DNA of 57,434 nt, filler included, from Candidatus Zhuqueibacterota bacterium (GTDB taxonomy: Bacteria; BS750m-G25): NCBI GenBank assembly GCA_016783505.1. It is 3 parts of 3 records of this genome, joined end to end, with 100 filler letters (N's around TTAATTAATTAA, not from the genome) between each part and the next. Parts side by side here need not be neighbours in the genome. Positions count along the whole stretch, not along the records: positions 19,503 to 38,619 come from JADHWK010000042.1; 2 more parts are not named here. The stretch is one strand, 5' to 3'. A model generated the notes under the pieces. The model was not told the DNA's origin, did not search any database, and saw only the letters and a list, made by a program, of their open reading frames with translations. The position numbers and the translations under genes are program-made. This document shows, in pieces, positions 20,243-37,702 of the stretch (position 1 is its first letter; each line of letters starts with the position of its first letter).

Positions 20243-20262
20243 AATATTTGCCTAAAGTTTAA

Positions 20263-20718: not shown

Positions 20719-21154
20719 GGAAGGCGATCACAAAAAAGCCCAACGGAAGTATGATTTGAATGATCCAGATGGGTAAATTATTAAAAAGGATGCCCTGGCC
20801 CTGGCGCTCCATAGCCAGGAAGGTCCAGGCCGCCAAACCCAAAAAGAGGCAGACGGCCAAGGAGAGGACCTCAACCACACATTTTGACCAGAGCTTCCCC
20901 CTGGGGCGGAGCAGTTTGGTCAGCACGTCAATGTTGATGTGTTTATTCTCCCGGGTGGACAAGGACGCCCCTAAAAAAGCTACCCATAGGACTAAATGTC
21001 GAAGAAAGGTATCCGCCCAGGGGATACCAGTGGAGAAAAAATTTCGCAATACCACCTGCAGAAAGGCCAGCCCGATCATGGTGGTTAAAAAGAGGACGAT
21101 GATGACCCCTTCGGTCAACGCTAAATATTTGTCAATCGTTTTCAGGACTTTCAT
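20699..21154 (-). CDS. dctQ: TRAP transporter small permease DctQ (C-terminus probably clipped)
   Basis: FLQVVLRN, WADTFLRHLVLWVAFLGAS, KHINIDV, ILPLGF. Confidence 0.85.
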   Translation of the reverse strand: MKVLKTIDKYLALTEGVIIVLFLTTMIGLAFLQVVLRNFFSTGIPWADTFLRHLVLWVAFLGASLSTRENKHINIDVLTKLLRPRGKLWSKCVVEVLSLAVCLFLGLAAWTFLAMERQGQGILFNNLPIWIIQIILPLGFFVIAFRFFLID

Positions 21155-21270
21155 CTTTTTCGCAAAGCGTGAAGCGTAGATCGTAAAAGCGAAAGGTCAA
21201 AATTTACGCTCCACTCTCTTATGCTCTCCTCTCTTCGTTGTGCCCCCGAGGCCTCGGGGGGATGAGGGTT

Positions 21271-22332: not shown

Positions 22333-22818
22333 TCTCTCCTCAATAAAACCAGTAAAGATCATGAGTCGTCTGCGCAATACTGAACCAGCCCTAGTCAACC
22401 CTTGCCTGCACTTCGCTTTCCAGTGCTTTGGCTAAATACATCTGTGAAAAAACTTATTTATTAATTTTTGTATTCATAAATTTTCCCCAAATATTATTTT
22501 TTAATATTTTTGGCTCTTCTGGACTTTAATACGGTAGAAAAAAGTGCTTAGGTCATGGTAAAGACAGGCATAACCTGATTATATTTAGATACTTAATTAT
22601 TTTATTAAAGTGTTGTAAATGTGGTTAGGTATGTCGGCAAAGATACTGGGGTCTATTCTTAATCTTAAGGGGATTCGGGTTCGAAGTATTTCCCATTCCA
22701 GTCAAGATAAACTCAACGGATTTTTTTATATGATAGACGATTCTCCATACTGAAAATTTTAAATTATGTCAAAAAAAACTACCGTATAAATTTCCAGATG
22801 AACCTTTTTTTTAAACAT

Positions 22819-23940
22819 TTAGATTTCTATCTCATAGATTCTATATTTTTTATACAGCTTCCCCCCTATTGCCTCGTCAAACCGATTGATCAAATCATTA
22901 TCCTCCAGGTTCCACGACATTTCACACCAGCGGTAGCCCAATTTTGCCCCGGCCTTTTCCGTTTCATAGTACAAGACAGTATTGATGCCCGTACGCCGAT
23001 ACTCTTTTTTGAGGCCAAATATCAGGGCTCGCAGGCCGGTTATTTTTCTCCTGTAATAGATAAGCTTAAGAATCCCAACCGGGCCCAGCCTACCATTGAG
23101 TCTTTTCAGCACCTGGTTGAAGTCGGGAATGGTAACACTGACGCCAACGGGCTCTCCGTTTACTTCAGCGAAAAGTACCAGTTCGGGCTCAGCAATGGGT
23201 TTTAGTTCCTTGGCCATTAAATCCATTTCCGCATCAGTCATGGGTACGAATCCCCAATTCATCTCCCAGGAAGAATTGTAGATATCCTTGATAAGCGCCA
23301 CCTCTTGCTCGAATTTTTTCATATTAATAGGCCTTACCACGACATTCTCTTTTTTCTTTACTCTTTCCACCAGTCTGGCGATACGCTCAAGGACTCCTAC
23401 TTCGCTCTTTAGGAAAGCGTACAAATCCTTCGCCTTTCGGAAACCATACCGCTCCATAAATTCAAGATAATATTTGGGATTATAAGGCATCATAATAACC
23501 GGACTTGAATCGAAGCCCTCAAGGAGAAAGGCGCATTCATCGTTCATGCTCAGGTTCATCGGCCCTCGCAGGAGATTCATGCCGTTTTTCCGACACCATT
23601 TTTTGGCGGCGGTGAGCAGAGACTCGGCGACATTATAGTCTCGCACACACTCAAACAGACCGAAGAAGCCTGTGTTCTCCTGATGAAATTTGTTGTGGTT
23701 AAAGTCAATAATAGCGGCTATTCTACCAACCGGTTCGCTGTCTCTTCTCGCAAGGAACAGCTCCATCTCGGCGTGCTCGAAAAAAGGATGCTTCAGACGG
23801 TTCAATTTGAATTTCATTTCCTTAAGGAGCGGGGGTACCCAATAAAGGTCGCCATCATAGACCTTCCACGGCAAACGGAGAAAATCGTTGAGATCCCTTT
23901 TCCCCTCCACTCTATGTACACTAATCTTTTCTCTGTTCAT
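22819..23940 (-). CDS. Tandem GNAT-fold N-acyltransferase, YghO / bacterial ceramide synthase-like
   Basis: WVPPL, HPFF, VGRIAAIID, GFFGLFEC, RGPMNLS, MMPYNPKYY, NWGFVPMT, PDFNQ, SWNLEDN, KKYRIYE. Confidence 0.75.
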   Translation of the reverse strand: MNREKISVHRVEGKRDLNDFLRLPWKVYDGDLYWVPPLLKEMKFKLNRLKHPFFEHAEMELFLARRDSEPVGRIAAIIDFNHNKFHQENTGFFGLFECVRDYNVAESLLTAAKKWCRKNGMNLLRGPMNLSMNDECAFLLEGFDSSPVIMMPYNPKYYLEFMERYGFRKAKDLYAFLKSEVGVLERIARLVERVKKKENVVVRPINMKKFEQEVALIKDIYNSSWEMNWGFVPMTDAEMDLMAKELKPIAEPELVLFAEVNGEPVGVSVTIPDFNQVLKRLNGRLGPVGILKLIYYRRKITGLRALIFGLKKEYRRTGINTVLYYETEKAGAKLGYRWCEMSWNLEDNDLINRFDEAIGGKLYKKYRIYEIEI

Positions 23941-24021
23941 GTTTCCCTCCTTCGGTCAAATTATGTCTACTGATTTCTTAATGTTGAAATTCTCACAAAG
24001 AAAGAAACAGCAACGGTTAAC

Positions 24022-24840
24022 CTAACAGACCCATTTTTGCAGCACGAAGCTTAGGTATATAACCCCTCCAGTCCGAAAACATTCATAAATTTTAGAACCT
24101 TTGACTCCGGCAAACTCTTGAAATAATTTTAACAACAACTTGGGTATTGATTTTTGAATAAGCACCATCTTGCGTTCATTGTCCAAATTCAGAGCCTCGA
24201 TAACATTGGGGATTATATTCGTTTCTTTGATGAGAGTCATTCCTGAACGGCGAAGCTGTTTGTAAAGTGTATCAATTTTGTCTTTGCCACGAAAGTCTGC
24301 GTAAAGAAAGTAACCACCTTGTCGGAGGATCCTCTTGACCTGCATAAGAAAAGCATCCATTGAACCATAACAGTGTGAAGACTCTACATTAACAATCACA
24401 TCAAAGCTATTATCCTCAAAGGGCAGAAATTCAGCATCGGCCGTTACGAATGAAAGTCCTTCAACAAAATAACTCTTATTACAAAATGCCACGGCTTTTT
24501 CTGAGAAATCAACACCAACCATTGTTTTTGGTTCTAAATAACGTTTGATATAATGTGATCCTCCTCCTCGACCGCTGCTTACCTCTAGCACATTTAAATC
24601 CCTAAGGTTAACAACATTGGCAACATGATGATAGAGTTGAACGCAGTAGCGATTTGGCTCGTCATCATCGCCTAAGTTAAGCTTTTCTGTTTGAGGGTCT
24701 AATGGGGCATAACCATAGTTCATGAATGACCAGTCTTCTCTCTGATAGTATCCTGCCAGGAACTGGTACCACTGTCTCCGGATTAATCTTCCAAGATAAG
24801 GAGAAATTCGGCAAAGTGCCATGAATAGCTTAGTTATCAT
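24022..24840 (-). CDS. Class I SAM methyltransferase, fatty-acid / phthiotriol O-methyltransferase-like
   Basis: WSFMNYGY, QLYHHV, VLEVSSGRGGG, NVESSHCY, YADFR. Confidence 0.8.
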   Translation of the reverse strand: MITKLFMALCRISPYLGRLIRRQWYQFLAGYYQREDWSFMNYGYAPLDPQTEKLNLGDDDEPNRYCVQLYHHVANVVNLRDLNVLEVSSGRGGGSHYIKRYLEPKTMVGVDFSEKAVAFCNKSYFVEGLSFVTADAEFLPFEDNSFDVIVNVESSHCYGSMDAFLMQVKRILRQGGYFLYADFRGKDKIDTLYKQLRRSGMTLIKETNIIPNVIEALNLDNERKMVLIQKSIPKLLLKLFQEFAGVKGSKIYECFRTGGVIYLSFVLQKWVC

Positions 24841-24858
24841 GAAATGTCTACCTTTTTG

Positions 24859-25491
24859 TCAAGTTCTGTAAATAGCAAGAATTTTATTTCTTACCCTCTC
24901 AGTAACTTCATTTATTATTTTTCGGTCATACCCTTCCTTATAATAATTGTCAAAATAAATAGGTTTCCCAATTTTAACTGTGATTTGATGTGGCCTGGGA
25001 ATTTTTTTACCATAAGGGAGTACTCGGTTACTTCCGATAATGACTACTGGTATAATCGGGGCCTTAGCCTCTAGTGCAAATCTGGCAATACCCTGCTTAA
25101 AGCGCCCCAGTGTTCCATCTTTACTGACATAACCTTCGGGAAAGATAGCAACGATCTTTTGCTGCTGTAATATTTCGGTAACTATCTTAAAGGTTTGATG
25201 ACAAAAACCCATGCGGTTAACTGAAATTCCATTAAGTCTAGTAAACAGAAATCTTAAAAATGTATTTTTAAACAGTTCTTTTTTTCCGAGTGTGTAAATT
25301 TCCTGTTGAACGGCAGCCATTAGAATAAAAGCATCCAGAGTGCTAAAATGATTAGCGGCTAAAATAAATGTCTCATTCTGCGGCAAATAGTAACATTCCT
25401 CAATCCGCAGCCTCGAATATATCTTAAAGAATACCCAAGATACTATCTTAACAAATTTGTAAAGCATCGTCCGCTCAGTATCTTTTAACAA
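24859..25491 (-). CDS. plsC: Lysophospholipid (1-acyl-G3P) acyltransferase, PlsC family
   Basis: NHFSTLD (HX4D), KKELF, IFPEG, PIIPV. Confidence 0.85.
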   Translation of the reverse strand: MLKDTERTMLYKFVKIVSWVFFKIYSRLRIEECYYLPQNETFILAANHFSTLDAFILMAAVQQEIYTLGKKELFKNTFLRFLFTRLNGISVNRMGFCHQTFKIVTEILQQQKIVAIFPEGYVSKDGTLGRFKQGIARFALEAKAPIIPVVIIGSNRVLPYGKKIPRPHQITVKIGKPIYFDNYYKEGYDRKIINEVTERVRNKILAIYRT

Positions 25492-25493
25492 AA

Positions 25494-26375
25494 CTACTTA
25501 GGAACCATCACCTTTAGGGCCTTAGGAACTAAGGACACCTTCAGCCTGGCATCCCCATCTAAAGCTTCACCGTCCACCTGTATGGGTGCCGGCCCGGGTA
25601 GAATAATCTCCACATTCGAAGACCGATAGATTTCAAAATAACGGGTTCTATCAATATGTCCGGTGAAAAGTTTCGGAAGATGATAGATGGCTTGTAATAT
25701 ATTCAGGTCATTAATAATGCAAATATCCAGTAAGCCATCGTCAGGCTGTGCCTGTGGTGCGATAATAGCCCCGTTGCCAAATTGTATGGTGTTAGCCACG
25801 GCCACCAAAAGGGCCTTTACAGTGATCTGTCGGTGATCAAACCTGAGGGCAATCTTTTTAGGTGAGTAGTTGAAAAACTCTTGAAGACCAACATAGAAAT
25901 GAGGTAGTAACCCTCTCCGTGACCTTGTATTAAGCCGTTTTGTCACTACGGCACCAAACCCAACCCCGGCGGTAGCGAAAAAATATCGGCCTTGTATTTT
26001 GCCTACATCTATTCTCCTGAATTTACCTTGACATAATATTTGACAGGCTTTCTTGAGTTGGAGAGGAATTCCCAATCCTCTCGCCAGACCATTTCCCGAA
26101 CCTATAGGAATAATTCCTAAGCATGCATCTGAATTAACCAATGCTGAGGCCACTTCATTAACCGTGCCGTCGCCTCCAACGGCCGCCACCACATCGAAAC
26201 CTTCCCGTATCGCTTCACGGGCTGTCCGCAGAGCATCGCCTCGGCCCACGGTCTGTTGGATGTGATACTCACACGGAAATTTATCTAAGACACTGGCAAG
26301 GATTCGTTTCATTCTAGCCCCATTTCTGCCCCTGCCAGCTATTGGATTTAAAATAAATTTTATTTTAAAGGCCAT
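25494..26375 (-). CDS. Diacylglycerol/sphingosine kinase-family lipid kinase (YegS-like)
   Basis: ILNPIAG, GGDGTVNEV, IPIGSGNGLAR, DDGLLD, QVDGE. Confidence 0.9.
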   Translation of the reverse strand: MAFKIKFILNPIAGRGRNGARMKRILASVLDKFPCEYHIQQTVGRGDALRTAREAIREGFDVVAAVGGDGTVNEVASALVNSDACLGIIPIGSGNGLARGLGIPLQLKKACQILCQGKFRRIDVGKIQGRYFFATAGVGFGAVVTKRLNTRSRRGLLPHFYVGLQEFFNYSPKKIALRFDHRQITVKALLVAVANTIQFGNGAIIAPQAQPDDGLLDICIINDLNILQAIYHLPKLFTGHIDRTRYFEIYRSSNVEIILPGPAPIQVDGEALDGDARLKVSLVPKALKVMVPK

Positions 26376-26382
26376 TTCTTTG

Positions 26383-28068
26383 TTACAACTTAGCTGAACG
26401 CATAATAGCAATAATCAGCCACAAGCCCAAAACCGCTGCTATCAGATACCCCACAATCCCGATAGCCGGGAAACCAAATACTAACGGCCCTTTGTCCAGT
26501 TGAACAATCAAGGATGAACCAATAATCAGCGCCGCGATGATCATACTAAACGACAGGCGATTGCTGGATTTATCCAATTCTGAAATGAGGTGGTCCAGAC
26601 CGCGATGTTCAAACTTAATGCTTAATTCGCCTTTCTTAATCTTGGTTATAATTGCCCGAATTTCCAGCGGCAAAATCTTAAACAGGCGGTTAAACTCGTC
26701 GAGAGTGCTGGCATAGTCTTTTAGATACCTTCGGGGATCCAACTTGCGAACCATTATTTCTTGAACATAAGGTTTAGCCAGGGAGATCATATCAAAATCA
26801 GGATCAAGTTCGCGACCAATTCCTTCTTCAGTCGCTAGAGCCTTACCCATCAGGGTCAAATCAGAGGGTATTTTAATGCGATGCCTTCTGACAATTTCCA
26901 TAGCCTCATTAATTACTATGCCAATGTTAATTTGATTGAGGGGAACCTGATAATAGCGATCTAGAAAATCCAGTATATCACGCCGCAATGCTCTGACATC
27001 CGAGACATCTTCTATAATGCCGATATGCCTGAAGGCACTGATTATCCTATCAGCATCCTTGTGCACGATTCCAGAAAGAAGATTGCCCACTTCTTCCCTC
27101 ATCTCATCATCCAGTCGTCCCATCATGCCATAATCCAGGGGAGCAATGACGTTATTTTCCAGCACAAAAATGTTGCCTGGATGGGGATCGGCATGAAAGA
27201 AGCCGTGCTCAAAGACCTGTTTTAAAATTGCCTGGGCTCCATTAACGGCGATGATCTTCCTGTCCAGTCCTGCCGCCTCTAATTTCTCTATTTCCGAAGC
27301 CTTTATACCATCAATATACTCCATGGTCAAAACACGGTCAGTGGCCAATTCCCAGTAAACTTTAGGAACATAGATGGTATCATCCCCGGCAAAATTTCTG
27401 CGAAAACGATCTATATTACGCCCCTCTTGAATGAAGTCTAATTCCCGCCGAATAGTTTTAGCAAACTCCTCAACGATGGCTACGGGATTGTAAAGTTCGC
27501 TTTCAGGGATGCGCCGTTCAACCAACACTGCCAGGTCAAAAAGAATACTTAAATCAGTTTCGATAACTTTCTGAATATTGGGGCGCTGAATTTTCACCAC
27601 CACCTGCTCACCATTTTCAATGACGGCTCGATGAACCTGCGCAATTGATGCTGCGGCCAACGGTTCTTCCACAAAGGAATCAAATAGCTGTTCCACCGGG
27701 GCGCCCAATTGCGCTTGAATGACCTCTCGTGCTTGCTGAACAGGAAAAGGCGGCACCTCATCCTGGAGCTTTTTAAATTCATTAATAAAATCTTCGGGGA
27801 TCAGATCCGGACGAACGCTTAGCATTTGACCCAGCTTAACGAACGTAGGCCCCAATTCTTCAAAGGCCAGCCGTACCCGTTGCGCCCGGGTAACCTTCTC
27901 TAAATCCCTTTCTTTTAACCTGGGAATCACCTTTTTCCCCAGTTTAATGTAGTATTCGATTTTCAACCTATTAATGACATCGTCAAAACCATATTTGACC
28001 AGAATCATCAAAATCTGGCGGTATCTCTTAAGATGGCGATAGGTCTTGGTAAATTTGGTTATTTGCAT
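26383..28068 (-). CDS. AarF/ABC1/UbiB-family atypical kinase
   Basis: ELGPTFVKLGQ, PLAAASIAQVH, VVKIQRP, FFHADPHPGN, LDYGMMG; two C-terminal TM helices. Confidence 0.92.
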   Translation of the reverse strand: MQITKFTKTYRHLKRYRQILMILVKYGFDDVINRLKIEYYIKLGKKVIPRLKERDLEKVTRAQRVRLAFEELGPTFVKLGQMLSVRPDLIPEDFINEFKKLQDEVPPFPVQQAREVIQAQLGAPVEQLFDSFVEEPLAAASIAQVHRAVIENGEQVVVKIQRPNIQKVIETDLSILFDLAVLVERRIPESELYNPVAIVEEFAKTIRRELDFIQEGRNIDRFRRNFAGDDTIYVPKVYWELATDRVLTMEYIDGIKASEIEKLEAAGLDRKIIAVNGAQAILKQVFEHGFFHADPHPGNIFVLENNVIAPLDYGMMGRLDDEMREEVGNLLSGIVHKDADRIISAFRHIGIIEDVSDVRALRRDILDFLDRYYQVPLNQINIGIVINEAMEIVRRHRIKIPSDLTLMGKALATEEGIGRELDPDFDMISLAKPYVQEIMVRKLDPRRYLKDYASTLDEFNRLFKILPLEIRAIITKIKKGELSIKFEHRGLDHLISELDKSSNRLSFSMIIAALIIGSSLIVQLDKGPLVFGFPAIGIVGYLIAAVLGLWLIIAIMRSAKL

Positions 28069-28150
28069 GGCATTGCCTCAAATTTGAAAATTAAATTATC
28101 GGCGCCGGGTGGTTATTAGACCCGACGCCGATAGATGGGTGTAACTACCC

Positions 28151-28447
28151 TCACTTTGCCATCTTTTTCGCCAAACCATCGATCTTCTTTTCCAATGCTT
28201 CAAAGTCCTTCTTAGTTGGCAGACCCAGTTTTGCAACTGCCTTCTCGATCTCTGCACTAATTTTGCCCGCCAGCACCTTTTCCGCTTCTTCTGCCTTCTT
28301 AAGGAACTCATCGATGGCTGTAGAGCGTTCTTCCCTGGCTAATTCACCCTTTTTGATAAGTTCATCTACCAGGGCTCCGGCTTTTTCCCTGGTAAGGGTT
28401 ACTGCACCCATGCCCAACAAGACGCCTTTTTTGAGCAGCTCGAACAT
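28151..28447 (-). CDS. Phasin-like (PhaF/granule-associated) small helical protein
   Basis: LLGMGAVTLTREKA..VDELIKKGEL..LGLPTKKDFEALEKKID; a common partner of UbiB genes. Confidence 0.75.
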   Translation of the reverse strand: MFELLKKGVLLGMGAVTLTREKAGALVDELIKKGELAREERSTAIDEFLKKAEEAEKVLAGKISAEIEKAVAKLGLPTKKDFEALEKKIDGLAKKMAK

Positions 28448-28465
28448 AGCAAACACCTCCTTTAC

Positions 28466-29815
28466 TTAAAAACTCACCTTCACTTTTACATAAACCTCAT
28501 CATTTTCCTTCACTCGACTGAACAAGCTTTCCCCCTTGCCTTCGATAAGAAATGCACCGAGGGTCAGTTCAATATTATCCGACGGGCAGTAATCGATCTC
28601 TGGCGCACCCACAAAGCCATAACTATTTTTCACATCATCCCAATCTTCGATACTGATAGCCCCACCGAAGGGCACAATCTTAAGTCCGTCATTGAGAAAC
28701 TTTTTCTCGAAACGGAAAACAATATAATCCTTCAACTCATCCCTACCCCTTTCGTGGATGAATCCATGAAGATATTGAGCATTCACGTATAAGCCGTTCT
28801 TAAAGGTGTAGTCACCACCGACGACATATTTGAAGTAAGGCTCGTCATCCAGTGCCGTTGAGGTCTGGGTCGTCATGCCCATGGGTGTAGGGAGGGTGGT
28901 GGACATAGCCACCCTTTCAGGAATAGTCAGGGCACCCTCGGCCCAGATGCCCACTTTTCCGATGGCCCCAGCCATGTCAGCGCCGACAATCTGCATCCTG
29001 GGAAAGGTGAGGGTTGATGAAACATCCACCGTGCCCAGGGTGTCCACCGGTGTTATGGTTACTGAATTGAATAAAGGCAGGTCGTCCCGTCCATTGAAAT
29101 AGCTCAAGGAAACATCATAATTAAGCAGGGTTGTGGCAACTTTAAATCCTGTCATTGAGGATTCGGAAAGTTTTTCTTCGGGCAATATCAAACTGTCCGA
29201 AATATCTCGGATGATCATGCCTGGCGGAAGGGACATAGGTGCAGAAAAGGCGGCAGCCCAGTCTGGTGGGGGTAAAATCGCTGGTGTGAATACTGGGACA
29301 AAAACGCCCGTCAGCATCGCATTTCCAAGGTAGTAAGTAGCTTTTAGGGAGCTGCTCCCCAACCTCTCCCCGAAGTTGAACAGGTCTTCCAGATCGTCGG
29401 GATTCAGGTTGTCAGTGGGATTGAGCCTATCGGCCGTTCCCCAGGTAATTCGCTGTCGGCCTATACGAACGTCAAGATTTTCCATAAGGAATCCGTAGAT
29501 ATCCACATAAGCTTCCCGAAATTCCAATGCCCATGGGTAGACCTCATCCTTTTCCCGCCGTTGCAGGTCCCATGAAGCTGCTGATTTAGGAAATCCAAAT
29601 CCCCGCAACCGGAGTTCACTGTAAAAATGAAGCTTATCCGAGGAATTACCTTCAAACTTTAGACCCAAGCGATTTTCGTTCCAGGTATAGTGTTTGTCGC
29701 CTTGCAAGCGACATCGGTTATCGGTTTCCACGTAACCACCAATCTCTACTTGCGAGAACAGATTTGAAGCAAAAATAACCATCACTATAAGAGAAAGAAT
29801 CGTTTTTTTCTGCAT
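28466..29815 (-). CDS. Outer-membrane beta-barrel protein (DUF1302-like)
   Basis: Signal peptide, FREAYVD, RIGRQRITWGTAD..NPTD, C-terminal VYVKVKVSF beta-signal. Confidence 0.75.
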   Translation of the reverse strand: MQKKTILSLIVMVIFASNLFSQVEIGGYVETDNRCRLQGDKHYTWNENRLGLKFEGNSSDKLHFYSELRLRGFGFPKSAASWDLQRREKDEVYPWALEFREAYVDIYGFLMENLDVRIGRQRITWGTADRLNPTDNLNPDDLEDLFNFGERLGSSSLKATYYLGNAMLTGVFVPVFTPAILPPPDWAAAFSAPMSLPPGMIIRDISDSLILPEEKLSESSMTGFKVATTLLNYDVSLSYFNGRDDLPLFNSVTITPVDTLGTVDVSSTLTFPRMQIVGADMAGAIGKVGIWAEGALTIPERVAMSTTLPTPMGMTTQTSTALDDEPYFKYVVGGDYTFKNGLYVNAQYLHGFIHERGRDELKDYIVFRFEKKFLNDGLKIVPFGGAISIEDWDDVKNSYGFVGAPEIDYCPSDNIELTLGAFLIEGKGESLFSRVKENDEVYVKVKVSF

Positions 29816-29974
29816 GGTTGTGCTCCTTAGTTTTAGATTTAATCCACCGACAATATTACTCGGCTTAGTTTTCACCCTTTCACCTCGGCACCCCTGCTCC
29901 TCTGCTTGTTAATATTCAAATAAACTTAGATGAATAGAAATTCTTTCTGTCAAAAAGGATTATTCATTGAAGAA

Positions 29975-30721
29975 TCATTTCCTCCGCTTCAAATACCGTT
30001 GGGTGAAGAGCTTATCGGTCAACCCGGTGTCAAATTCCATCTTGTCAACCAACATTTTGGTGCTGTGCTTCTGTTTTACATCCTTCATTTCCATTTCTTC
30101 AGTATACCAATAATTTCCCTGCTTTTTGAGCTTGCGGCGCTCCATTATTTTCCAGAGCCTACCGCCTTTATTGTAATACTCAATTTTGACAGGGTAGAAG
30201 TTGTCCTTTCGCACCCACATTTTCAACTTGCCGTAATCTTTTTTGACATCAGGCTTCGGCGTAAGCTCCAGAAGATAGCACTCTCCGGTGGTTCCCAACA
30301 GCTTCGGATCGTACTCCTCAGCGAACTTGAAGGCGCTCAGGTCATCGTAGGTAAAGTCCGTACCTGCGAATTTGGTATTCTTTACATGCGAAGCAATGCG
30401 GCGCACTTTTTTGAATGCCGGCAGGTAAAGGTACTGGACATCATTGGGAAGCCCCAGAAAAGCGATTCCTTTTTGGTCAGCAGGGGAGAGAAAACGCACC
30501 AGGCGCTTATCGTCACCCTTTTGATACATCTCTGTCTCACGCACCTTTTCCCAGCCGTCTTTGTCAATGAGAATCATTTTGGACAGCATCTTTTGGTCTT
30601 TAGGTGCATTGACCACCGCGTCGGCTTTTTTCAGAATATCCACGGCGGTTAGCTCCTGTGCCTCTACCCCAGCGAAAAGTACCAGGGTGAAGATTGCGGT
30701 GAGTAGGCTAATTCGTCTCAT
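29975..30721 (-). CDS. Outer-membrane lipoprotein-sorting protein (LolA-like)
   Basis: RFLSPADQKGIAFL, YLYLPAFKKVRRIA, FAGTDFTYDDL, FTQRYL. Confidence 0.88.
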   Translation of the reverse strand: MRRISLLTAIFTLVLFAGVEAQELTAVDILKKADAVVNAPKDQKMLSKMILIDKDGWEKVRETEMYQKGDDKRLVRFLSPADQKGIAFLGLPNDVQYLYLPAFKKVRRIASHVKNTKFAGTDFTYDDLSAFKFAEEYDPKLLGTTGECYLLELTPKPDVKKDYGKLKMWVRKDNFYPVKIEYYNKGGRLWKIMERRKLKKQGNYWYTEEMEMKDVKQKHSTKMLVDKMEFDTGLTDKLFTQRYLKRRK

Positions 30722-30764
30722 TGTACTATCTCCTATTGTTTTGGGTTAATGAGGGTTCAGTAAA

Positions 30765-31187
30765 CTACCTTATGGTATCCAGATGTTTTTTAACCCGCAG
30801 GCAATGATTTTCAAACAACATAAAATGGGAATCCAGATGCTTTATATTACGGCGTTGCTCCCTACCCGATTCAATCTCCTTTCTGATGTGTTTTACGTCA
30901 TCATAAATGGCACTCAGGTCAGAGAATGCCAGATTTATCCCATCATTAAGTAAGGCCGTTTTCCGTTCATCATCGGCCATTTCTGATGGCATTTTCATAA
31001 TAGCAGTCGAGAGCGAAGCCAGATTCCCTTCGATCTCTTTTAAAATCTCCATTGCACTTTTTACATCCTCATTGTCCACCCCCAGACTAATCCAGCTTGA
31101 ATTCTCAAGCTTGATCCGATTGACCAGCTTTTTTGCTCTATATAGGATGTTCTGGAGCTCCTCAATACTTCTTTCTAAATCCTCCAT
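30765..31187 (-). CDS. Hypothetical helical / coiled-coil protein
   Basis: 140-aa ORF with GAGGA RBS, co-oriented within the operon; no motif recognised. Confidence 0.6.
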   Translation of the reverse strand: MEDLERSIEELQNILYRAKKLVNRIKLENSSWISLGVDNEDVKSAMEILKEIEGNLASLSTAIMKMPSEMADDERKTALLNDGINLAFSDLSAIYDDVKHIRKEIESGREQRRNIKHLDSHFMLFENHCLRVKKHLDTIR

Positions 31188-31256
31188 CGGGTTTCCTCCT
31201 CAAATGGTTTTTTTCATAACTATATCTGAGTTGGACGAACCGCCTTTAGAAACTGC

Positions 31257-32726
31257 TTAAGCCGCTTCCTTTTTCTCCACCCGTTCCCTCTCCGGTCCAA
31301 TGTATTCCTTTTCCCAGATGGGTCGGGTGAGACGGTCTACCTCATCGCCGCAGGCTACCAGTCCCCTGTAATAAGCCGGATCCTTGAGGGCCTCTCCCGC
31401 CTCTCGATCCCCTGGTCTTGCTCCTGCCGCATCAATGATCTCTCGGGCCTCGCGGTGATGATCCTTGGAAATGCAGGGAACAATCTGGTTTCCTACCTCA
31501 TGCGCGGGTTTCATATAGCTGTAATCCCGCTGCCACTCCCGGATAGACCGGAAAAAGGGACTTATCAGGACGGTGTTCAGGTCTCCTCCTTCTCTGTAAA
31601 CCTGGTAGATATTATCTACTGTGTAAGGATTAAAGGCACAGGGCAGGCAGTTCCCGTTCCAATCAATGTAGAAGTATCCCCCTGAACGACCCGCTGAGAT
31701 GCAGCCGTTGGATACCGCCCCACTGTTCCAGAAGTCAGCGATAAACAGGGCTTTCTCCCGTATCAGATGCTGCTCCCGCTGGAACATCCACTTGCGTTGT
31801 TCCGGGGTAACCATTAGATCAAGGGTGTAGCTTCGCCCGATGGGCATGTACTGAAAAATCCAGCCGTAGACGGCCCCCTGCTGCTCAAAATAGAAGTCCA
31901 AAAACTCGTCGCTGAGGACGAACTCGGCGTTGGAGCGCATTGCCGTGATGGAAATCCCGAAGGGGACACCATTATTCCGCAGATTTTCGAACGCTTTGAG
32001 AATCCGCTTGTGAACACCCTTTCCTCGCCGGGCGTCGGTCTCATTCTCAAGTCCTTCTACTGAGATTGCCGGTGTAATATTACCCACCTCGGCCATCCGT
32101 TGAGCCATTTTCTCATCAATGAGCGTCCCGTTGGTATACATGAGGAAATACTGGTCGCTGTGTTTGGCGGCGACATCAATGAGGTCTTTTCCTTCACTCT
32201 CCCACATAAGCGGCTCTCCCCCGGAAATTACGGTGAAGTGGGAACCCCAAAGTTCTCTCTTCTCCGTCAGGATACGATCCGCTGTTTCGTAGTCCAATTT
32301 CTCCGCATTGGCGGCGCAGCTGGAAGCATAACACCCGATACAGCGGAGATTGCACCGCTTGGTGGGACTGATGAGCAGAAAAAAAGGGACACCGAATCCG
32401 TGGGTCTCCTCGAAGGCTCTTCTCGTAGCATTGTCCTCCAAAAGTACATTGCCCACCAGAACCCTGATAAGGCCTCGGCGAACAGACGGCGAAACCCTCA
32501 TGTTTTCCAGAGCCCTATTGATGGAGTGAAGCATGTTCCTGAGCATGTAGTACTTGTCTTCCTGAACCCGTCGGGGTCCGCCGCTGTCGTTTCTTTCGAC
32601 GAGGGTGTGATATATTTTCTTCTCCCCCACCTTCAAGGCCAGCCCCCGAAGGGCATCGTTGGCTAAAACGGCGTTAACCAAAGTGAGGAAAGGCATGGCC
32701 AGCATTGATTTTACTGTGGGCAGCAT
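31257..32726 (-). CDS. Radical SAM protein with SPASM/twitch-like C-terminal cysteines
   Basis: CNLRCIGC (CX3CX2C), SGGEP, YTNGTLID, ISVEG, YMPIG, GCISAG...NGNCLPC. Confidence 0.9.
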   Translation of the reverse strand: MLPTVKSMLAMPFLTLVNAVLANDALRGLALKVGEKKIYHTLVERNDSGGPRRVQEDKYYMLRNMLHSINRALENMRVSPSVRRGLIRVLVGNVLLEDNATRRAFEETHGFGVPFFLLISPTKRCNLRCIGCYASSCAANAEKLDYETADRILTEKRELWGSHFTVISGGEPLMWESEGKDLIDVAAKHSDQYFLMYTNGTLIDEKMAQRMAEVGNITPAISVEGLENETDARRGKGVHKRILKAFENLRNNGVPFGISITAMRSNAEFVLSDEFLDFYFEQQGAVYGWIFQYMPIGRSYTLDLMVTPEQRKWMFQREQHLIREKALFIADFWNSGAVSNGCISAGRSGGYFYIDWNGNCLPCAFNPYTVDNIYQVYREGGDLNTVLISPFFRSIREWQRDYSYMKPAHEVGNQIVPCISKDHHREAREIIDAAGARPGDREAGEALKDPAYYRGLVACGDEVDRLTRPIWEKEYIGPERERVEKKEAA

Positions 32727-32759
32727 GATGGCACCTCCTTTCTGATTAGTTGAAAAATA

Positions 32760-35738
32760 TCAAGAATTTCTATTCTTAAGTTTTTTTATCCTTGCCTTTG
32801 CTCTACCAATTACGGCATCGGTTCCGCCTGCCACTGCAGTAGCAAAGCCAGAAAAATCCCCGATACACTTTGCTTTGGTGATCAAAATTAGGGCTGGCAG
32901 GATGGTAACAGCACTGAAGGCGCTGGTCATCATGGTGAGGGCCATTAGATAACCAAACCACTTCATGGGAACGATATCCCCGGTAACCAGCACCAGAAAG
33001 CCCATCATCACCGTCACGGCGTTAATCATAATCGCCTTCCCGGTGGTCTCCAGGGTTCTGTCCAGGGCCTCCAACTCGCTCTTGCTTTTAGCAAACTCCA
33101 CCTTAAATCGGGTGATGAAATGAATGGCGTAATCAATCCCAACCCCCATGGCTATGTTGCCCATTAGAATTGTAAGCTCATCCAAAGGTATATCTAAGAT
33201 TACCATCAGTATAAAATTGATAAGAATGGCAAGGATAATCGGGAAAACAGACATCAGCCCACCGACCAGCGATTTTAGCCTGATGGCAAGGAGGACAAAG
33301 ACTAAAAATATGGCAAGGCCCAGGCCCAAGCTCTGACTCCTCATAATCTTTCGATCCAGTTCCTTGTAGATCAAGGGTAATCCTGTTTGCCAAGCAGCCA
33401 GTTTGACCTCGGCCTTACCAGGGTTATCCTGTGCTGAAAAAAGGCTGGCATATTGGGAACTTTCCACAACAATCCAATCTTCGTTGATCTCCCAAACATC
33501 ATCCCGTAGATCTTCCAGAAATTCAGTGTTATTAGTCAATTTTCGGGAAAGAAGCGGCTTTAAGTCTTCAAGCAGATGGTTAACCCTGGCCCATTTTGCC
33601 TGCTCGTTGATAACAGCCACTATGGATTCAGCAGCATATTCCAGAACCACGGGATCATCCGCATAGACTTCTTTTGATACATTCCATTTAAGAATTGTAC
33701 TAATGGCTTCTTCGTCCGGTCTGCTGGTCTGCAATAGCTTGCCAATATTATTAACAATTCGTTCAATAACTTTTTCGGATTCTATCTGGACATCGGCTTC
33801 ATCGCTTAAGAAATAATCGCTAATTTTTTGCTTAATGATCTTTATGGTAGCTTCGTCGAACCTCTCATGATCAGCCAGGACCGCTGCCGTGATGACCTTT
33901 TCCAAATTGGCATCAGGGATTTGTTCATTCACCGCTCTTTTTCTAATGTCCCATTTCATTTTGGATACAATCCCTGCAACACGCTCTTTTTTTAATCGTC
34001 CAGCCAGTTCACCCTCGGCTTGAGAAATCCTTGCCTCGACCAAATTGGTCTTCAGGTGTTGTCTCAAATAGTCTTCAACTGCATCCACAGCAGCGATGGC
34101 CTTTTTCGTATTTACCGAACCCATCTTGGCCTGAATCAGGCCTTCGGTAGCCTCGCTGTTGATCAACTGATCCAGCACCTCATTTCCTTCAATGAAGAAC
34201 CAGAGGTTGGCCACCCCTTCTCTGGTATCAGGGATTGTCCGATGGCCATTCATCACCCAATTCATTTCACAGATAAGATCCGCAATTGATTGGGGATCGT
34301 TAATATTGGGCAGGGATTCCAGGTATTTCTCAAACCTGAGCATCTCTTTTAACACAAAGGGATTTTTTATGTCACCTTTGACAAAGAGTTGAATTGGAAT
34401 GGCACCACCCAGTTTTTGTTCTAAGAGCTCTTCGGCTTGCCTGATTTCACTATCTTTCTCAAAATAGCTGGCATAATCCACCTCACGATCCAGTTTTGGA
34501 ATAGCGACCAGAGAGATTAAAATAACAACCGCACCGAGGACGAGAATCAGTTTCTCCCTTTTGAGGACAAACCCTCCCAATCTGTCCATAAATCTTGTCG
34601 CCCAGTTGTCCTCTATCCCTCTGTGATCTACTTTGACTTTTTTGACCTTTAAGAAGGAAAGGACTGCGGGCAAAAAGGTTACTGACATGATCATGGCGAC
34701 CGTTACACCCAAGGCAGTACTGGCACCAAATTCCCGGATCACATTCAAATCGGAAGATAAAAAGGAAAGGAAGCCGATTAGAGTAGTGACACCAGCCAGC
34801 AGTATAGGAACGCCCACTTCGCTCAAAGCATGTTTTATTCCCTCAATTTTGGTGTCCCCCCGGCGGACATCCTCATTGTATTTGGCCACCATGTGGATGC
34901 CGTACGCACTGCCAATGGCGATGAGCAAAACAGGTACCACCTGGGAAGCCATGGTGAGTGAGATATTCATTAAGCTCATTACCCCCATAGCCCACACCGA
35001 GCTGATAAAAACGGTGATCAGTGGAAGAAAAACCCCACGAAAGCTTTTGAAACTAAAATAAAGAGAAGCCATCACCAACAGGGAAACCAGGGGAAGAAAT
35101 TTTTTCAAATTTGCCATTATGAGGTCAATCAGGAAGACCATTTGAAATGGTAGGCCACCGTAATAGATCTTCTCATCACCCGGGGTTTCTGCGATGATCT
35201 TTTTTAGCTGGCGTCCGATGGCTATTTTGTCAACCTCTTCTCGCAAGCGAGCAATTACGAGGGTTACCTCGCCGTCAGCGGAAACCAAGCTTCCCCGATA
35301 CATATTCTTGGAAAGTGTGTACTCACGCAGACTTTTCAGTTCTTCCGGAGTCTGAGGGATGTTATGTTTATCAATAAGCTTACTGATTTCCAGCCCCCAT
35401 TCGGTCTTTTTTATGTCCAGAATATCGGTCAACCCCATGACATGTGAGACTTCGTCCAACCGTTTGAATCTTTCAATAATTGTATTGACCCTGTTAAGGG
35501 TTTTATAATTAAAGACATCATCGGTCTCCAAAGCCACCATGGCCAGGGAATTACCACCGAATTTTTGCCCGACTTCATTGAAAAGAATAACAATGGGATC
35601 ATCCTGGGGCATGTAGCTTAAAATATCGCTGTTTATTTTGAGGTCTTTCAGTGAATAGCTGAAGAAGGCCGTAACCAGCATGGTAGTCACAATAATGGGA
35701 ATTCTGAATCTGATAACTAAATCGGCAAACTTTTTCAT
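32760..35738 (-). CDS. MMPL/RND-family lipid transporter
   Basis: Two TM blocks with AIGSAYGIH and GVGIDYAIHF, TTLIGFLS, TGKAIMINA. Confidence 0.9.
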   Translation of the reverse strand: MKKFADLVIRFRIPIIVTTMLVTAFFSYSLKDLKINSDILSYMPQDDPIVILFNEVGQKFGGNSLAMVALETDDVFNYKTLNRVNTIIERFKRLDEVSHVMGLTDILDIKKTEWGLEISKLIDKHNIPQTPEELKSLREYTLSKNMYRGSLVSADGEVTLVIARLREEVDKIAIGRQLKKIIAETPGDEKIYYGGLPFQMVFLIDLIMANLKKFLPLVSLLVMASLYFSFKSFRGVFLPLITVFISSVWAMGVMSLMNISLTMASQVVPVLLIAIGSAYGIHMVAKYNEDVRRGDTKIEGIKHALSEVGVPILLAGVTTLIGFLSFLSSDLNVIREFGASTALGVTVAMIMSVTFLPAVLSFLKVKKVKVDHRGIEDNWATRFMDRLGGFVLKREKLILVLGAVVILISLVAIPKLDREVDYASYFEKDSEIRQAEELLEQKLGGAIPIQLFVKGDIKNPFVLKEMLRFEKYLESLPNINDPQSIADLICEMNWVMNGHRTIPDTREGVANLWFFIEGNEVLDQLINSEATEGLIQAKMGSVNTKKAIAAVDAVEDYLRQHLKTNLVEARISQAEGELAGRLKKERVAGIVSKMKWDIRKRAVNEQIPDANLEKVITAAVLADHERFDEATIKIIKQKISDYFLSDEADVQIESEKVIERIVNNIGKLLQTSRPDEEAISTILKWNVSKEVYADDPVVLEYAAESIVAVINEQAKWARVNHLLEDLKPLLSRKLTNNTEFLEDLRDDVWEINEDWIVVESSQYASLFSAQDNPGKAEVKLAAWQTGLPLIYKELDRKIMRSQSLGLGLAIFLVFVLLAIRLKSLVGGLMSVFPIILAILINFILMVILDIPLDELTILMGNIAMGVGIDYAIHFITRFKVEFAKSKSELEALDRTLETTGKAIMINAVTVMMGFLVLVTGDIVPMKWFGYLMALTMMTSAFSAVTILPALILITKAKCIGDFSGFATAVAGGTDAVIGRAKARIKKLKNRNS

Positions 35739-35770
35739 TCTACTACCTCCAGTTGTGTGTCTTTTTGTTT

Positions 35771-35802
35771 AAACAAATAGACTAAATCAGTTTTATGGTC
35801 AC
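35771..35802. promoter_or_regulatory. Putative TetR operator upstream of MMPL
   Basis: AAACAAATAGACTAAATCAGTTTTATGGTCAC, similar to 36394-36427. Confidence 0.5.
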
Positions 35803-35817
35803 TTTAGGTAAAAAAAA

Positions 35818-36387
35818 TTATCTTTTCTCAATCCCCTTAAATAAAATGTCTAACAATAGATCAATACTTTCCTCCATCGCTATTTGACTGTCTTCTATAA
35901 TCCAGGGGTATTCCAGCCCCTTCAAAGCGGTAACGATAGCAAATGATGTAACCTCAATATTCTTTATCATAAATTCTCCTTTCGTAATCCCATCCACCAG
36001 AATCTCCTGAACAATCTTTTTTTCTTCCAAGAAGCTTTCCTTTCGTGCAAACTCAGCCTGGGGCCAAAATTCAGACACATTTTCCCGGGTAACATTATAA
36101 AGATTGGCCAGGTTTTTAAGATATCGCATTTTGGTTAAAACAAAGGTCCGCATCTTTTGCTGGGGCGTTTCCACTTTGGAAATCTCTTCCCTGATCTTAC
36201 CCACCAGAAATTCGCTTTCCTTTTTAACCACCCCATAAAAAACGTCCTCCTTATTAGTGAAATATTTGTAGATCGTTCCCTTCGCCACCCTGGCCAATTT
36301 AGCTATTTCATCAATGGTGGTCTTCCTCAGACCAAACCGCCCGAACAAACCCTGGGCAACCGTCAAAATATTTTCTTTTTTTCCCAT
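35818..36387 (-). CDS. TetR/AcrR family transcriptional regulator
   Basis: LFGRFGLRKTTIDEIAKLARVAKGTIYKYFTNKED helix-turn-helix. Confidence 0.93.
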   Translation of the reverse strand: MGKKENILTVAQGLFGRFGLRKTTIDEIAKLARVAKGTIYKYFTNKEDVFYGVVKKESEFLVGKIREEISKVETPQQKMRTFVLTKMRYLKNLANLYNVTRENVSEFWPQAEFARKESFLEEKKIVQEILVDGITKGEFMIKNIEVTSFAIVTALKGLEYPWIIEDSQIAMEESIDLLLDILFKGIEKR

Positions 36388-36393
36388 CTGTTA

Positions 36394-36460
36394 AAACATA
36401 TTAGACTAATATCGTTTTTTAGTTCACCACCAATATACAACATTTTTTTGAATTTGTCAA
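36394..36460 (-). promoter_or_regulatory. tetR promoter with downstream putative operator
   Basis: Minus strand TTGACA(36460-36455)-17 bp-TATATT(36437-36432); operator-like AAACATATTAGACTAATATCGTTTTTTAGTTCAC at 36394-36427. Confidence 0.65.
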
Positions 36461-36795
36461 GTCTTTTTTAAAAAAAATCCCCAAAGTATCAATGGGGGAT
36501 TTCTGGTTTCGATAACCTTTTCGGGACGGAACAACTATAATGAGCCCCGATTCGGAAAATACCGTCGGCCCGAAGGGTCTTGCCTGCCCGGTCCGTAGGA
36601 GGCTACGCTCCCCAGACGGGTCGTATGACCAGGGGGAAACGATCTTGGGAAACGACACTGAAATGATTGCTGATTGATGCTGGAACCTAGGTTTTAACAA
36701 TTAGCAACCTGCCCGCCAGGTCTTGGCAGGCGGGTTAACAATCAACAATTCAGTGGTTTTCAGTGTTGAATTTCCAGATTTGGGATAAAATAGGA

Positions 36796-37404
36796 TTACA
36801 GTTTCTTAACCCCTTGCACAAAGTACAGGTCCGGTTGATCAATCATCTTCAAGGGGTAAAAGTTAACCGACTTTAAAAGAACCTCCATCTCATCCAAGGA
36901 AGGCAAATAGTCATTTCGGATCGCTCCCCCTTTTTCTCGGTGAAACTCATTTACCCCCTGCTGACCCATTAAATGTATAATGGTAAACCTCCCCCCTGGT
37001 TTCAGGACCGACCAAACGGATCCCAGGGCTCGGAGCTTGTCCTGAACGTGGGGAAATGTGGAAAAACACACCGCCTGATCGAGGGAAGCTTCCCTGAGGG
37101 GAATCGAATGCAAATCTGCGCATACAATAAGGGAAGATACTGAAAAGGGTCGGCGCCTCAGTCGGTAAAGCATCTCAGCCGAAAAATCCAGGGCAAAAAC
37201 CCGCCCGGTCTCCCCCACCGCCTGGCTAAGCAAGGGCAGCAACCTTCCCGTTCCGCACCCAAGATCGGCCACCCAGTCGCCTTTTTTAATCCCCAGAAGG
37301 GAAACAATTTCCCGAGAGCGCTCGCAATTAAAAGGGGGTTTTTTCCATTGGTCGGCGACGGCATCGAAAAACCCACGGTGAGGATCAAATTCAACCACTT
37401 CCAT
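36796..37404 (-). CDS. Class I SAM-dependent methyltransferase (UbiE-like)
   Basis: FFDAVADQW, VADLGCGTG, LDFSAEML, FPH, VLKPGG. Confidence 0.85.
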   Translation of the reverse strand: MEVVEFDPHRGFFDAVADQWKKPPFNCERSREIVSLLGIKKGDWVADLGCGTGRLLPLLSQAVGETGRVFALDFSAEMLYRLRRRPFSVSSLIVCADLHSIPLREASLDQAVCFSTFPHVQDKLRALGSVWSVLKPGGRFTIIHLMGQQGVNEFHREKGGAIRNDYLPSLDEMEVLLKSVNFYPLKMIDQPDLYFVQGVKKL

Positions 37405-37702
37405 TAACCTAAATCCGGAAAATCAACAATAGCTGAAGGTTCGCCCTGGCAAAAAAACACCGAAAATCGGTCAGGCGCCCAACTGATCTGAAATTGAAAA
37501 ACAGCAGAGGAGCAGAGGGGCTGAGGAGCTGAGGAGAGAAAAAAATATCTATTTCTTTTTCCCCTTTGCTCCTCCCTGGGAGCGTAGCCTCCCTGGCCGT
37601 GCCTATGGGCAAGGCGGGCAGGCTTCGCCCCTGCACCCCTGCTCTTTCATTCTGATACCTTCTTATTCATTGTCAACTTCATATAAACTAAACCGATACT
37701 TT

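Follow-up and report, generated by a model that had tools for sequence, protein, structure and literature searches.

An Mss-like radical SAM enzyme within a TetR-headed run of lipid-related and exporter-like genes in an uncultured FCB-group bacterium

The gene run and its control elements

The stretch of DNA analysed here, referred to throughout as the window, comprises 57,434 nucleotides (filler included) from the genome of an uncultured bacterium of the FCB group, Candidatus Zhuqueibacterota (GenBank assembly GCA_016783505.1). It consists of three parts joined end to end, and the genes of concern lie in the part taken from JADHWK010000042.1 (positions 19,503 to 38,619). On the minus strand of this part, gene calls and translations give twelve co-oriented genes, one after another, from 36387 down to 22819. 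The first encodes a TetR-family regulator and the third a radical SAM (S-adenosylmethionine) enzyme, whose relationship to the bacterial membrane-spanning lipid synthase, Mss, is the main subject of this paper. The spacing from one gene to the next lies between -29 and 159 nt; beyond the last of the twelve, a TRAP DctP gene follows 420 nt downstream. A first-pass annotation of this DNA had described twelve tightly packed, co-oriented genes, and all twelve are present at the positions listed here. Families were assigned by Pfam and NCBIfam profile scans, with each score read against the cut-off of its model.

36432–36460, minus strand: promoter-like site TTGACA-17-TATATT, matching the consensus at 11 of 12 bases and lying upstream of the TetR gene
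36398–36412, no strand assigned: perfect 7-1-7 palindrome ATATTAGTCTAATAT, placed after the -10 hexamer and before the TetR start codon; candidate operator
35818–36387, minus strand: TetR-family regulator, 189 residues (Pfam TetR_N, E = 1.5e-13)
32760–35738, minus strand: MMPL/HAE3-type RND inner-membrane transporter, 992 residues (Pfam MMPL, E = 1.6e-51)
31257–32726, minus strand: radical SAM enzyme, 489 residues, probably of a sister clade within the Mss family (PF04055, E = 6e-23)
30765–31187, minus strand: 140-residue protein; no Pfam or NCBIfam family passes, with weak coiled-coil-type matches only
29975–30721, minus strand: periplasmic LolA-like protein, 248 residues, with an N-terminal signal-like segment (PF17131, E = 1.6e-60, 204.4 bits)
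28466–29875 (likely start 29815), minus strand: putative outer-membrane β-barrel (DUF1302, 21.6 bits; cut-off 23.2)
28151–28456, minus strand: phasin-related protein, 101 residues (PF05597, 43.5 bits, cut-off 28.8; NF047773, 42.9 bits, cut-off 35)
26383–28068, minus strand: UbiB/ABC1-family atypical kinase/ATPase, 561 residues (TIGR01982, 511.9 bits; cut-off 487.55)
25494–26411, minus strand: YegS/DAGK-type lipid kinase, 305 residues (TIGR00147, 171.3 bits, cut-off 118.65; DAGK_cat, E = 4.7e-31; YegS_C)
24859–25491, minus strand: PlsC-type acyltransferase, 210 residues (PF01553, E = 1.8e-26)
24022–24840, minus strand: SAM-dependent methyltransferase, 272 residues, related to mycobacterial lipid O-methyltransferases
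22819–23940, minus strand: GNAT-fold acyltransferase, 373 residues (Acetyltransf_1, E = 4.3e-6, with no stretch passing alone)

These family assignments support the earlier description of a locus that is concerned with lipids and co-oriented behind a TetR gene. The start given to it there, 36460, is the -35 hexamer of the promoter-like site. This site (36460 to 36432) is the best of 28 such matches in the region; since shuffled sequences average 23.6 matches, the count is not above chance, and it is just the quality and position of the site that carry weight. The palindrome occurs in the window as a single exact copy, with four matches at three or fewer mismatches compared with 1.5 expected, and we regard it as a candidate operator for the TetR protein. 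Its core, TTAGTCTAA, is present in only two of the 80 related loci surveyed below, and there is thus no conserved operator. The best NCBIfam match of the regulator itself is the Bacillus-type fatty-acid regulator FadR (76 bits, far under the cut-off of 200). Rfam and tRNA scans of the window gave no matches.

The radical SAM protein and the Mss family

Mss, a radical SAM enzyme, links two fatty acyl chains tail to tail across the bilayer and so gives diabolic or iso-diabolic-acid lipids, from which branched glycerol dialkyl glycerol tetraethers (GDGTs) are presumed to derive. Two enzymes have been validated, TM0824/Tmari_0825 of Thermotoga maritima and WP_129545148.1 of Thermoanaerobacter ethanolicus (Sahonero-Canavesi et al. 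2022, PMC13159169). They match each other at E = 1e-89 (Table S20 of that work), and the published definition of a homologue is E ≤ 1e-50 with at least 30% identity to a validated Mss; the supplement of the same paper describes six conserved blocks in words (PMC13159169).

The window protein resembles Mss in length (489 residues, compared with 482 and 446) and in Blocks I and II, and probably in further blocks. It has an N-terminal helical extension of about 110 residues, followed by the radical SAM cysteines C125/C129/C132, as placed by alignment and by a structure model of good quality (predicted local distance difference test score, pLDDT, 82; predicted TM-score, pTM, 0.86). Block I, CNxxCxGC, is present at residues 125–132, with N126 invariant in an alignment of 17 members and the glycine not invariant across the clade; Block II, GGEP, is represented by G169, G170, E171 and P172, all invariant in the same alignment. 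The remaining blocks are described as containing N, S, R and glycines (III), G, S, N, E, W then P, Q, R (IV), and three P with C, V and A (VI) (PMC13159169). With a register inferred from that verbal description, residues of these types are invariant at N216, S222 and R233/R234/G235 for Block III, at G257, S259, N266, E268, W289, P308, Q310 and R311 for Block IV, and at P407, P417 and C418 for Block VI. Beyond the cysteines of the SAM cluster, just three are invariant among the 17 members: C342, C363 and C418.

Homologues of the protein are numerous, at least 4257 of 8000 scored candidates passing the homologue search. The best named relatives (84–85% identity) are from candidate division KSB1, with others from Latescibacteria and Zixibacteria, and a scan of one genome per species gave at least 574 confirmed matches, all from metagenome-assembled genomes (MAGs) and spread over many phyla. 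It was also compared with proteins carrying the VEPC motif of Block V: the window protein is 37% identical over its full length to a homologue from a Dictyoglomaceae MAG (E = 1e-105), and 42% identical to one from a Bacillota MAG (E = 1e-91). The first-pass annotation had placed the radical SAM enzyme in a combination that it did not recognise as a described pathway; the Mss motif blocks and the 37–42% identity to VEPC-bearing relatives do not bear this out for the enzyme.

From 1.84 billion representatives searched, 450 proteins were recovered at E ≤ 1e-30. Of the 150 listed from these, 93 with lengths of 425–540 residues were kept as rows for a tree, the other 57 being fragments or out of range. 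Midpoint rooting divides the tree into two clades. The window protein falls in a clade of 34 rows (support 0.97), with a median length of 493.5 residues, whose members come from FCB phyla, Nitrospirota, Spirochaetes, Planctomycetes and candidate phyla. The other clade, of 60 rows, 33 of them with VEPC, has a median length of 472 residues, and among the matches listed for its VEPC proteins the named relatives belong to Dictyoglomaceae, Bacillota, Bacteroidales, Patescibacteria, Asgard and DPANN, with no protein of Thermotoga, Thermoanaerobacter or a cultured Dictyoglomus among the best 120. Both ranges agree with that published for Mss homologues (PMC13159169).

Several features stand against an equation of the window protein with Mss. 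In Block V the D-F pair is present, but VEPC reads CLPC in the window protein and V-x-P-C in its clade, none of whose 34 rows has VEPC; the clade is thus both separate and well supported, besides having the higher median length. Searches of the PDB with the window protein, by sequence, profile and fold, return generic SPASM/twitch enzymes only (SuiB, SkfB, anSME). Membership of the family is argued from motif descriptions and by way of unvalidated intermediate sequences. We conclude from these sequence comparisons that the protein very probably belongs to the Mss family. That it performs the same chemistry is favoured by a smaller measure, since its clade is known from sequence alone and the VEPC motif differs.

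Could the enzyme instead be a peptide maturase, of the kind that matures ribosomally synthesised and post-translationally modified peptides (RiPPs), with the small proteins encoded beside it as substrates and the pump exporting the product? Its nearest solved structures are indeed peptide maturases, SuiB (E = 7e-12), SkfB and CteB. The TM-scores are only about 0.47, however, and cover the common core; the small neighbours, of 101 and 140 residues, are conserved helical proteins, one of the phasin family; no peptidase or leader-recognition domain was found; and the relatives and neighbours of the family are lipid-related. We consider a RiPP function extremely unlikely.

Two other radical SAM enzymes of tetraether synthesis were considered and rejected as identities for the window protein. 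Gms, the GMGT synthase, is closely homologous to AhbD throughout its core and carries an N-terminal extension (COG4001), and in bacterial gms-mss clusters it is encoded directly upstream of mss (Garcia et al. 2024, PMC11214058). The window protein shares with it a SPASM/twitch-type core preceded by a helical extension of about 100 residues, and B12-binding radical SAM genes often lie alongside in both cases, but the AhbD model covers only residues 122–303 of the window protein, at 68.4 bits. In two of the related loci surveyed below, by contrast, a gene of Gms architecture lies directly upstream of the Mss-type gene: L049:2960–4537, from a TA06 MAG, and L055:8499–10001, from a Stahlbacteria MAG, encode AhbD-type radical SAM/SPASM proteins that have N-terminal extensions of 120–145 residues and score about 216 bits over the whole AhbD model. 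This matches the published gms-mss arrangement (PMC11214058) and we count it in favour of the Mss assignment. A second radical SAM gene is often adjacent in the related loci, just as mss of T. maritima adjoins an AhbD-like gene (PMC13159169). The second enzyme, the archaeal tetraether synthase Tes/GDGT-MAS (PDB 7TOL/7TOM), is likewise a radical SAM enzyme with auxiliary cluster(s), and a review postulates Tes-like, cluster-assisted sp3-sp3 coupling for Mss (PMC13459092). Identity with the window protein was rejected on a profile match of E = 0.0056, limited to the core, and a Foldseek rank of 35 with a TM-score of 0.38.

Neighbourhoods of the radical SAM gene in 80 related loci

Which of the twelve genes accompany the radical SAM gene elsewhere? 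We surveyed 80 of the at least 574 genome matches, 19 of these loci (given L numbers) being shorter than 6 kb. The window proteins were compared with all open reading frames (ORFs) of the 80 loci by phmmer and then by profiles built from the first hits, and profiles were added for neighbours found with Pfam. The counts that follow are for partners within 5 kb of the radical SAM gene and are raw, with no chance baseline.

TetR: 35 of 80 loci, 33 on the same strand
Phasin-related protein: 22 of 80 loci, same strand in every case
Patatin phospholipase: 16 of 80 loci; not present in the window
UbiB: 14 of 80 loci, same strand in every case
B12-binding radical SAM protein: 11 of 80 loci; absent from the window
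140-residue protein: 7 of 80 loci, its relatives lying downstream of the radical SAM gene
PlsC: 2 of 80 loci (L005, L023)
MMPL transporter: 2 of 80 loci
LolA-like protein: 1 of 80 loci; 4 anywhere in the locus
β-Barrel: 0 of 80 loci; 1 anywhere in the locus
Lipid kinase: 0 of 80 loci
Methyltransferase: 0 of 80 loci
GNAT: 0 of 80 loci; elsewhere in two loci, L010 and L014

Among the window genes, therefore, those that recur with the radical SAM gene are just four: TetR, the 140-residue protein, the phasin-like protein and UbiB. The remaining seven (MMPL, LolA-like, barrel, PlsC, kinase, methyltransferase and GNAT) fail co-conservation around it, and the proposal in the first-pass annotation that the whole run forms one complete pathway is not supported by this comparison. 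PAP2, acyl-CoA ligase, CarS-like and MlaE/MlaD genes were found in single loci each.

The recurrent set is seen most clearly in L002 and L003 (83–84% identity to the window radical SAM protein), where the genes are TetR, radical SAM, in some cases the 140-residue protein, phasin, UbiB and in some cases patatin. In the closest relative, L001 (87% identity), the order is DUF445, radical SAM, a gene of no assigned family, the 140-residue protein and a LolA-like gene. Exporter genes occur in distant loci also. L027 has a TetR-MMPL-LolA-barrel operon 4.7 kb from its radical SAM gene, the window MMPL protein scoring 699 bits against the full-length relative there. In L020 a 153-residue ORF (858–1319) corresponds to residues 2–148 of the window MMPL and lies between TetR and the Mss-type gene; it is what remains of a TetR-MMPL-radical SAM gene order in a lineage distant from that of the window (56% identity). 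In L005 a LolA-like gene heads a run of phasin, UbiB, PlsC, patatin and radical SAM genes. Because MMPL or LolA-like genes recur in these four loci, L001, L005, L020 and L027, the link with an exporter is rare but not unique to the window.

Three further observations concern the radical SAM gene and its neighbours. The radical SAM ORF of L001 (1067–2974) is about 150 residues longer at its C-terminus, and a 628-residue form of the protein is also among the listed homologues. Patatin is a frequent same-strand neighbour, found within 3 kb in 15 loci (L003, L005–L008, L010, L016, L023, L028, L047, L053, L069, L071, L077, L079). B12-binding radical SAM genes lie within 3 kb of the Mss-type gene in L027, L031, L033, L034, L037, L040, L042, L045, L050, L067 and L080, which are from MAGs of Nitrospirota, Ignavibacteria and Deltaproteobacteria-labelled organisms, among others; the best NCBIfam matches of their products are HpnJ, BchE and HpnR, all far under cut-off, and we regard them as candidate alkyl-chain methylases.

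Candidate helper proteins

The 140-residue, phasin-related and UbiB proteins are the recurrent non-regulatory partners encoded in the window. A prediction of the complex between the radical SAM enzyme and the 140-residue protein gave no verdict (score 0.00, mark 0.32). The UbiB protein passes the NCBIfam equivalog cut-off for UbiB, and in this respect is like the UbiB/COQ8 (ABC1) family at large. Its setting is different. In Escherichia coli the gene order is ubiE-ubiJ-ubiB, whereas in the window the gene lies near an Mss-type enzyme and a phasin-related protein, not ubiE or ubiJ.

This assignment bears on a different substrate for the recurrent module, namely that the target of the radical SAM, phasin-like and UbiB proteins is an isoprenoid quinone or some other polyprenyl lipid, and that no acyl tails are coupled. 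UbiB proteins are tied to ubiquinone biosynthesis in the literature, a UbiB gene follows the radical SAM gene in all 14 of the loci counted above, and in L045 a gene resembling CDP-archaeol synthase neighbours the radical SAM gene. The sequence relatives of the radical SAM enzyme are nevertheless the Mss family, and the enzymes most often encoded beside it act on glycerolipids (patatin in 16 loci, PlsC in two); nor did Pfam and NCBIfam scans find a gene for quinone-ring modification or prenyl transfer in the cluster. A quinone or polyprenyl substrate is in our judgement improbable.

The putative exporter genes

Three genes of the run, for the MMPL pump, the LolA-like protein and the putative barrel, resemble known envelope exporters. 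The best NCBIfam match of the pump is TIGR00921 (HAE3), at 266.5 bits, under the cut-off of 351.9. The LolA-like protein also matches DUF1329 (E = 9e-10, 38.8 bits; cut-off 23.1) and has solved relatives in 9tp6, 3bk5, 4z48 and 3buu, the last three being entries cited for the superfamily of AmeB (PMC6394551). The barrel is less certain. A gene is present where the first-pass annotation had placed a DUF1302-like barrel, but the family match is under its cut-off and spans residues 115–204 only, so that a barrel is only probable. Its N-terminus is signal-like, its final residue is Phe, and it is 47% identical to the product of the gene that follows the LolA-like gene in L027. An AlphaFold2 model from a two-row alignment (pLDDT 28.6) is unusable.

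The association of MMPL, LolA-like and barrel proteins with the movement of hydrophobic molecules across the envelope, which the first-pass annotation invoked, has indeed been made in print (PMC6394551; bioRxiv 10.1101/072470). The AmeABCD system confers tolerance to monoterpenes (PMC6394551), and a cofitness cluster of DUF1302, DUF1329, BNR and RND genes has been described (bioRxiv 10.1101/072470). With AmeABCD and the DUF1302/DUF1329/BNR/HAE3-RND cassette the window genes share a periplasmic protein of the LolA superfamily, accompanied by a probable HAE3-type pump and a probable DUF1302-like outer-membrane protein. There are differences, however. The barrel and HAE3 matches are under cut-off in the window, its LolA-like protein has 248 residues compared with 451 for AmeB, and its exporter genes are interleaved with the Mss module. 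The fourth component of Ame-type cassettes is a BNR/Ycf48-like protein (PMC6394551; bioRxiv 10.1101/072470), and no such gene (COG4447) lies between 22819 and 36460. The hopanoid transporter HpnN offers a second comparison, being an RND protein of the HAE3 type by which a membrane lipid is carried towards the outer membrane; the window pump scores only 154 bits against TIGR03480 (cut-off 751.85) and 87.7 bits against NF052374 (cut-off 1100), and the window has no hopanoid genes.

A lone BNR/Ycf48-like (PSII_BNR) gene is found at 10276–11571 on the minus strand, 11 kb from the exporter genes as counted along the joined window, in a stretch of very low GC (GC 0.34; GC at third codon positions, GC3, 0.22).

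The tail enzymes

The run ends with a lipid kinase, whose gene overlaps that for UbiB by 29 nt, a PlsC-type acyltransferase, a methyltransferase and a GNAT. Over its full length the methyltransferase matches NF045823, phthiotriol/phenolphthiotriol dimycocerosate methyltransferase (241.6 bits; cut-off 300), and NF045825, Mtf2 (210 bits; cut-off 400), both under cut-off. The GNAT has no NCBIfam match at E = 0.01 and no solved relative below E = 0.07, and its nearest Atlas clusters are generic N-acetyltransferases. The earlier suggestion that it resembles a ceramide synthase finds no support in the Pfam, NCBIfam, Atlas and PDB searches, which gave generic GNAT matches only.

The bacterial ceramide synthase is a GNAT-fold enzyme and the bacterial ceramide kinase a DAGK-type kinase, so that finding these four tail enzymes side by side might be taken for a sphingolipid-type or otherwise new pathway, in which a lipid would cross the envelope inwards or outwards and then undergo phosphorylation, acylation, methylation and radical modification, the GNAT serving as ceramide synthase. 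We think this very improbable. Neither a serine palmitoyltransferase nor a reductase is encoded in the window, the GNAT falls in no named family, and none of the four enzymes travels with the radical SAM gene.

Interpretation of the locus

We read the gene run as made of three layers. The first, recurrent in many phyla, comprises TetR, the Mss-like radical SAM enzyme, the 140-residue helical protein, the phasin-related protein and UbiB. The second is a putative envelope exporter of Ame type (HAE3/MMPL pump, LolA-like carrier and probable barrel), interleaved into the first. The third is a tail of low GC3 with the YegS-type lipid kinase, PlsC, the lipid O-methyltransferase-like enzyme and the GNAT. 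The order in the window, TetR, MMPL, radical SAM, 140-residue protein, LolA-like, barrel, phasin and UbiB, is an order-preserving interleave of operons of the L002 and L027 types.

What might such an assembly do? The reading we prefer, and hold with about equal belief and doubt, is that the locus serves the regulated synthesis, tailoring and possibly export of membrane-spanning lipids, as a lineage-specific mosaic built on an Mss homologue. A lipid-sensing TetR protein would release the palindrome at the single strong promoter. The Mss-like enzyme, with its SAM cluster and one auxiliary cluster (C342/C363/C418), would then couple the acyl tails of membrane glycerolipids, as a review postulates for Mss by analogy with Tes (PMC13459092), while the amphipathic helical proteins (phasin-related and 140-residue) and UbiB might assist in exposing the lipid or drawing it out. 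Next to these, the kinase, acyltransferase and methyltransferase could re-tailor the glycerol ends of the product, and the pump, carrier and barrel could pass this bolaform product, or a related hydrophobic lipid, to the outer membrane.

Several results weigh against this reading. The exporter and tail genes have the lowest counts in the survey, which itself lacks a chance baseline; 23 of the 80 loci have none of the partners counted; and the arrangement already differs from that of the window at 83–87% identity (L001–L003). No ether-forming gene of the Ger, PlsA or ElbD type was seen in the window. The values of GC3 are 0.32 for PlsC, 0.37 for the methyltransferase and 0.42 for the lipid kinase, compared with 0.59 for the LolA-like gene and 0.63 for the radical SAM gene, a spread that suggests parts of different origin. 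Together with the gene fragments that flank the run, the low values for the kinase, PlsC and methyltransferase fit a recent assembly from parts.

These same results give substance to a competing explanation, that rearrangement has brought together three neighbours that share no pathway: an Mss-type lipid module, an Ame-like system under TetR control that pumps out hydrophobic toxicants, and phospholipid enzymes with housekeeping roles. The near absence of exporter and tail genes beside the radical SAM family in the 80 loci, the wide differences in GC3 between parts and the monoterpene tolerance conferred by the Ame system (PMC6394551) all speak for it. Truncated genes on either side of the block also point to rearrangement: at 37703–38614 (minus strand) there is only the C-terminal barrel part of a TonB-dependent receptor, 303 residues with no N-terminal part upstream, and at 20263–20706 a glycosyltransferase fragment. 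Other features are harder to accommodate, however. The Mss-module and exporter genes are interleaved rather than juxtaposed; gaps of 9–159 nt and one promoter-like site make separate expression unlikely; MMPL or LolA-like genes lie near the family in the four distant loci noted above; and the window TetR resembles its counterparts beside radical SAM genes (up to 193 bits) more than the one beside the exporter of L027 (114 bits). We regard an assembly of such unrelated neighbours as rather unlikely, and return to regulated synthesis and tailoring of membrane-spanning lipids as our working interpretation.

A broader and more speculative proposal, which we think unlikely as a whole, is that diderms of the FCB group and candidate phyla own dedicated machinery for bolaform lipids. 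An enzyme of the Mss-type clade would act with phasin-like and UbiB proteins that raise the acyl tails from the bilayer, an HAE3/LolA-like/barrel exporter would form the conduit to the outer membrane in some lineages, and the B12-binding radical SAM proteins encoded beside Mss-type genes in other phyla would be the long-sought methylases of branched tetraethers.

The Mss enzyme family, described in 2022, and the exporter type are kinds already known. What is new, relative to the main texts of the Mss-related papers searched, is the set of partners that recur with this Mss-type clade, together with an exporter interleaved among them and a tail of tailoring enzymes. MMPL, phasin, patatin, LolA and UbiB are unmentioned in those main texts, as is the neighbourhood of TetR, phasin-like, UbiB, patatin and exporter genes that sets the window protein apart from Mss, although supplements outside the search may bear on this. 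A library search found no paper that joins a membrane-spanning lipid, radical SAM, a transporter and the outer membrane, and UbiB and a membrane-spanning lipid synthase were not found together in the top-ranked papers on either. Branched GDGTs serve widely as palaeoclimate proxies, and which anaerobes make them, and by what complete biosynthetic route, is still being worked out (PMC13274423, PMC11868695). In this locus an Mss-type gene from an uncultured member of the FCB group stands under a regulator of lipid type, near candidate helpers, tailoring enzymes and an envelope exporter. From the survey comes a ranked list of recurrent partners (TetR, phasin-like, patatin, UbiB and B12-binding radical SAM proteins), which provides testable leads to accessory factors, to methylation and to the way in which a lipid spanning a single membrane could reach another.

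Other genes in the window

Downstream of the run, at 19652–22398 on the minus strand, TRAP DctP and DctQ genes are followed by a C-terminal fragment of a GT4 glycosyltransferase (147 residues, no DctM permease being present) and then by a CDP-alcohol phosphatidyltransferase gene. The fragment is the one at 20263–20706 and abuts DctQ, an arrangement suggestive of a scar left by rearrangement where the cluster ends downstream. At 9093–9660, also on the minus strand, there is a gene pair for a BrnT-like toxin and a CopG/BrnA-like antitoxin. Finally, at 48011–50562 on the plus strand, genes for a protein with a membrane domain of the lysyl-phosphatidylglycerol synthase type and for a 527-residue protein of no family lie amid glycosyltransferase genes; these are further envelope lipid or glycan genes outside the gene run.

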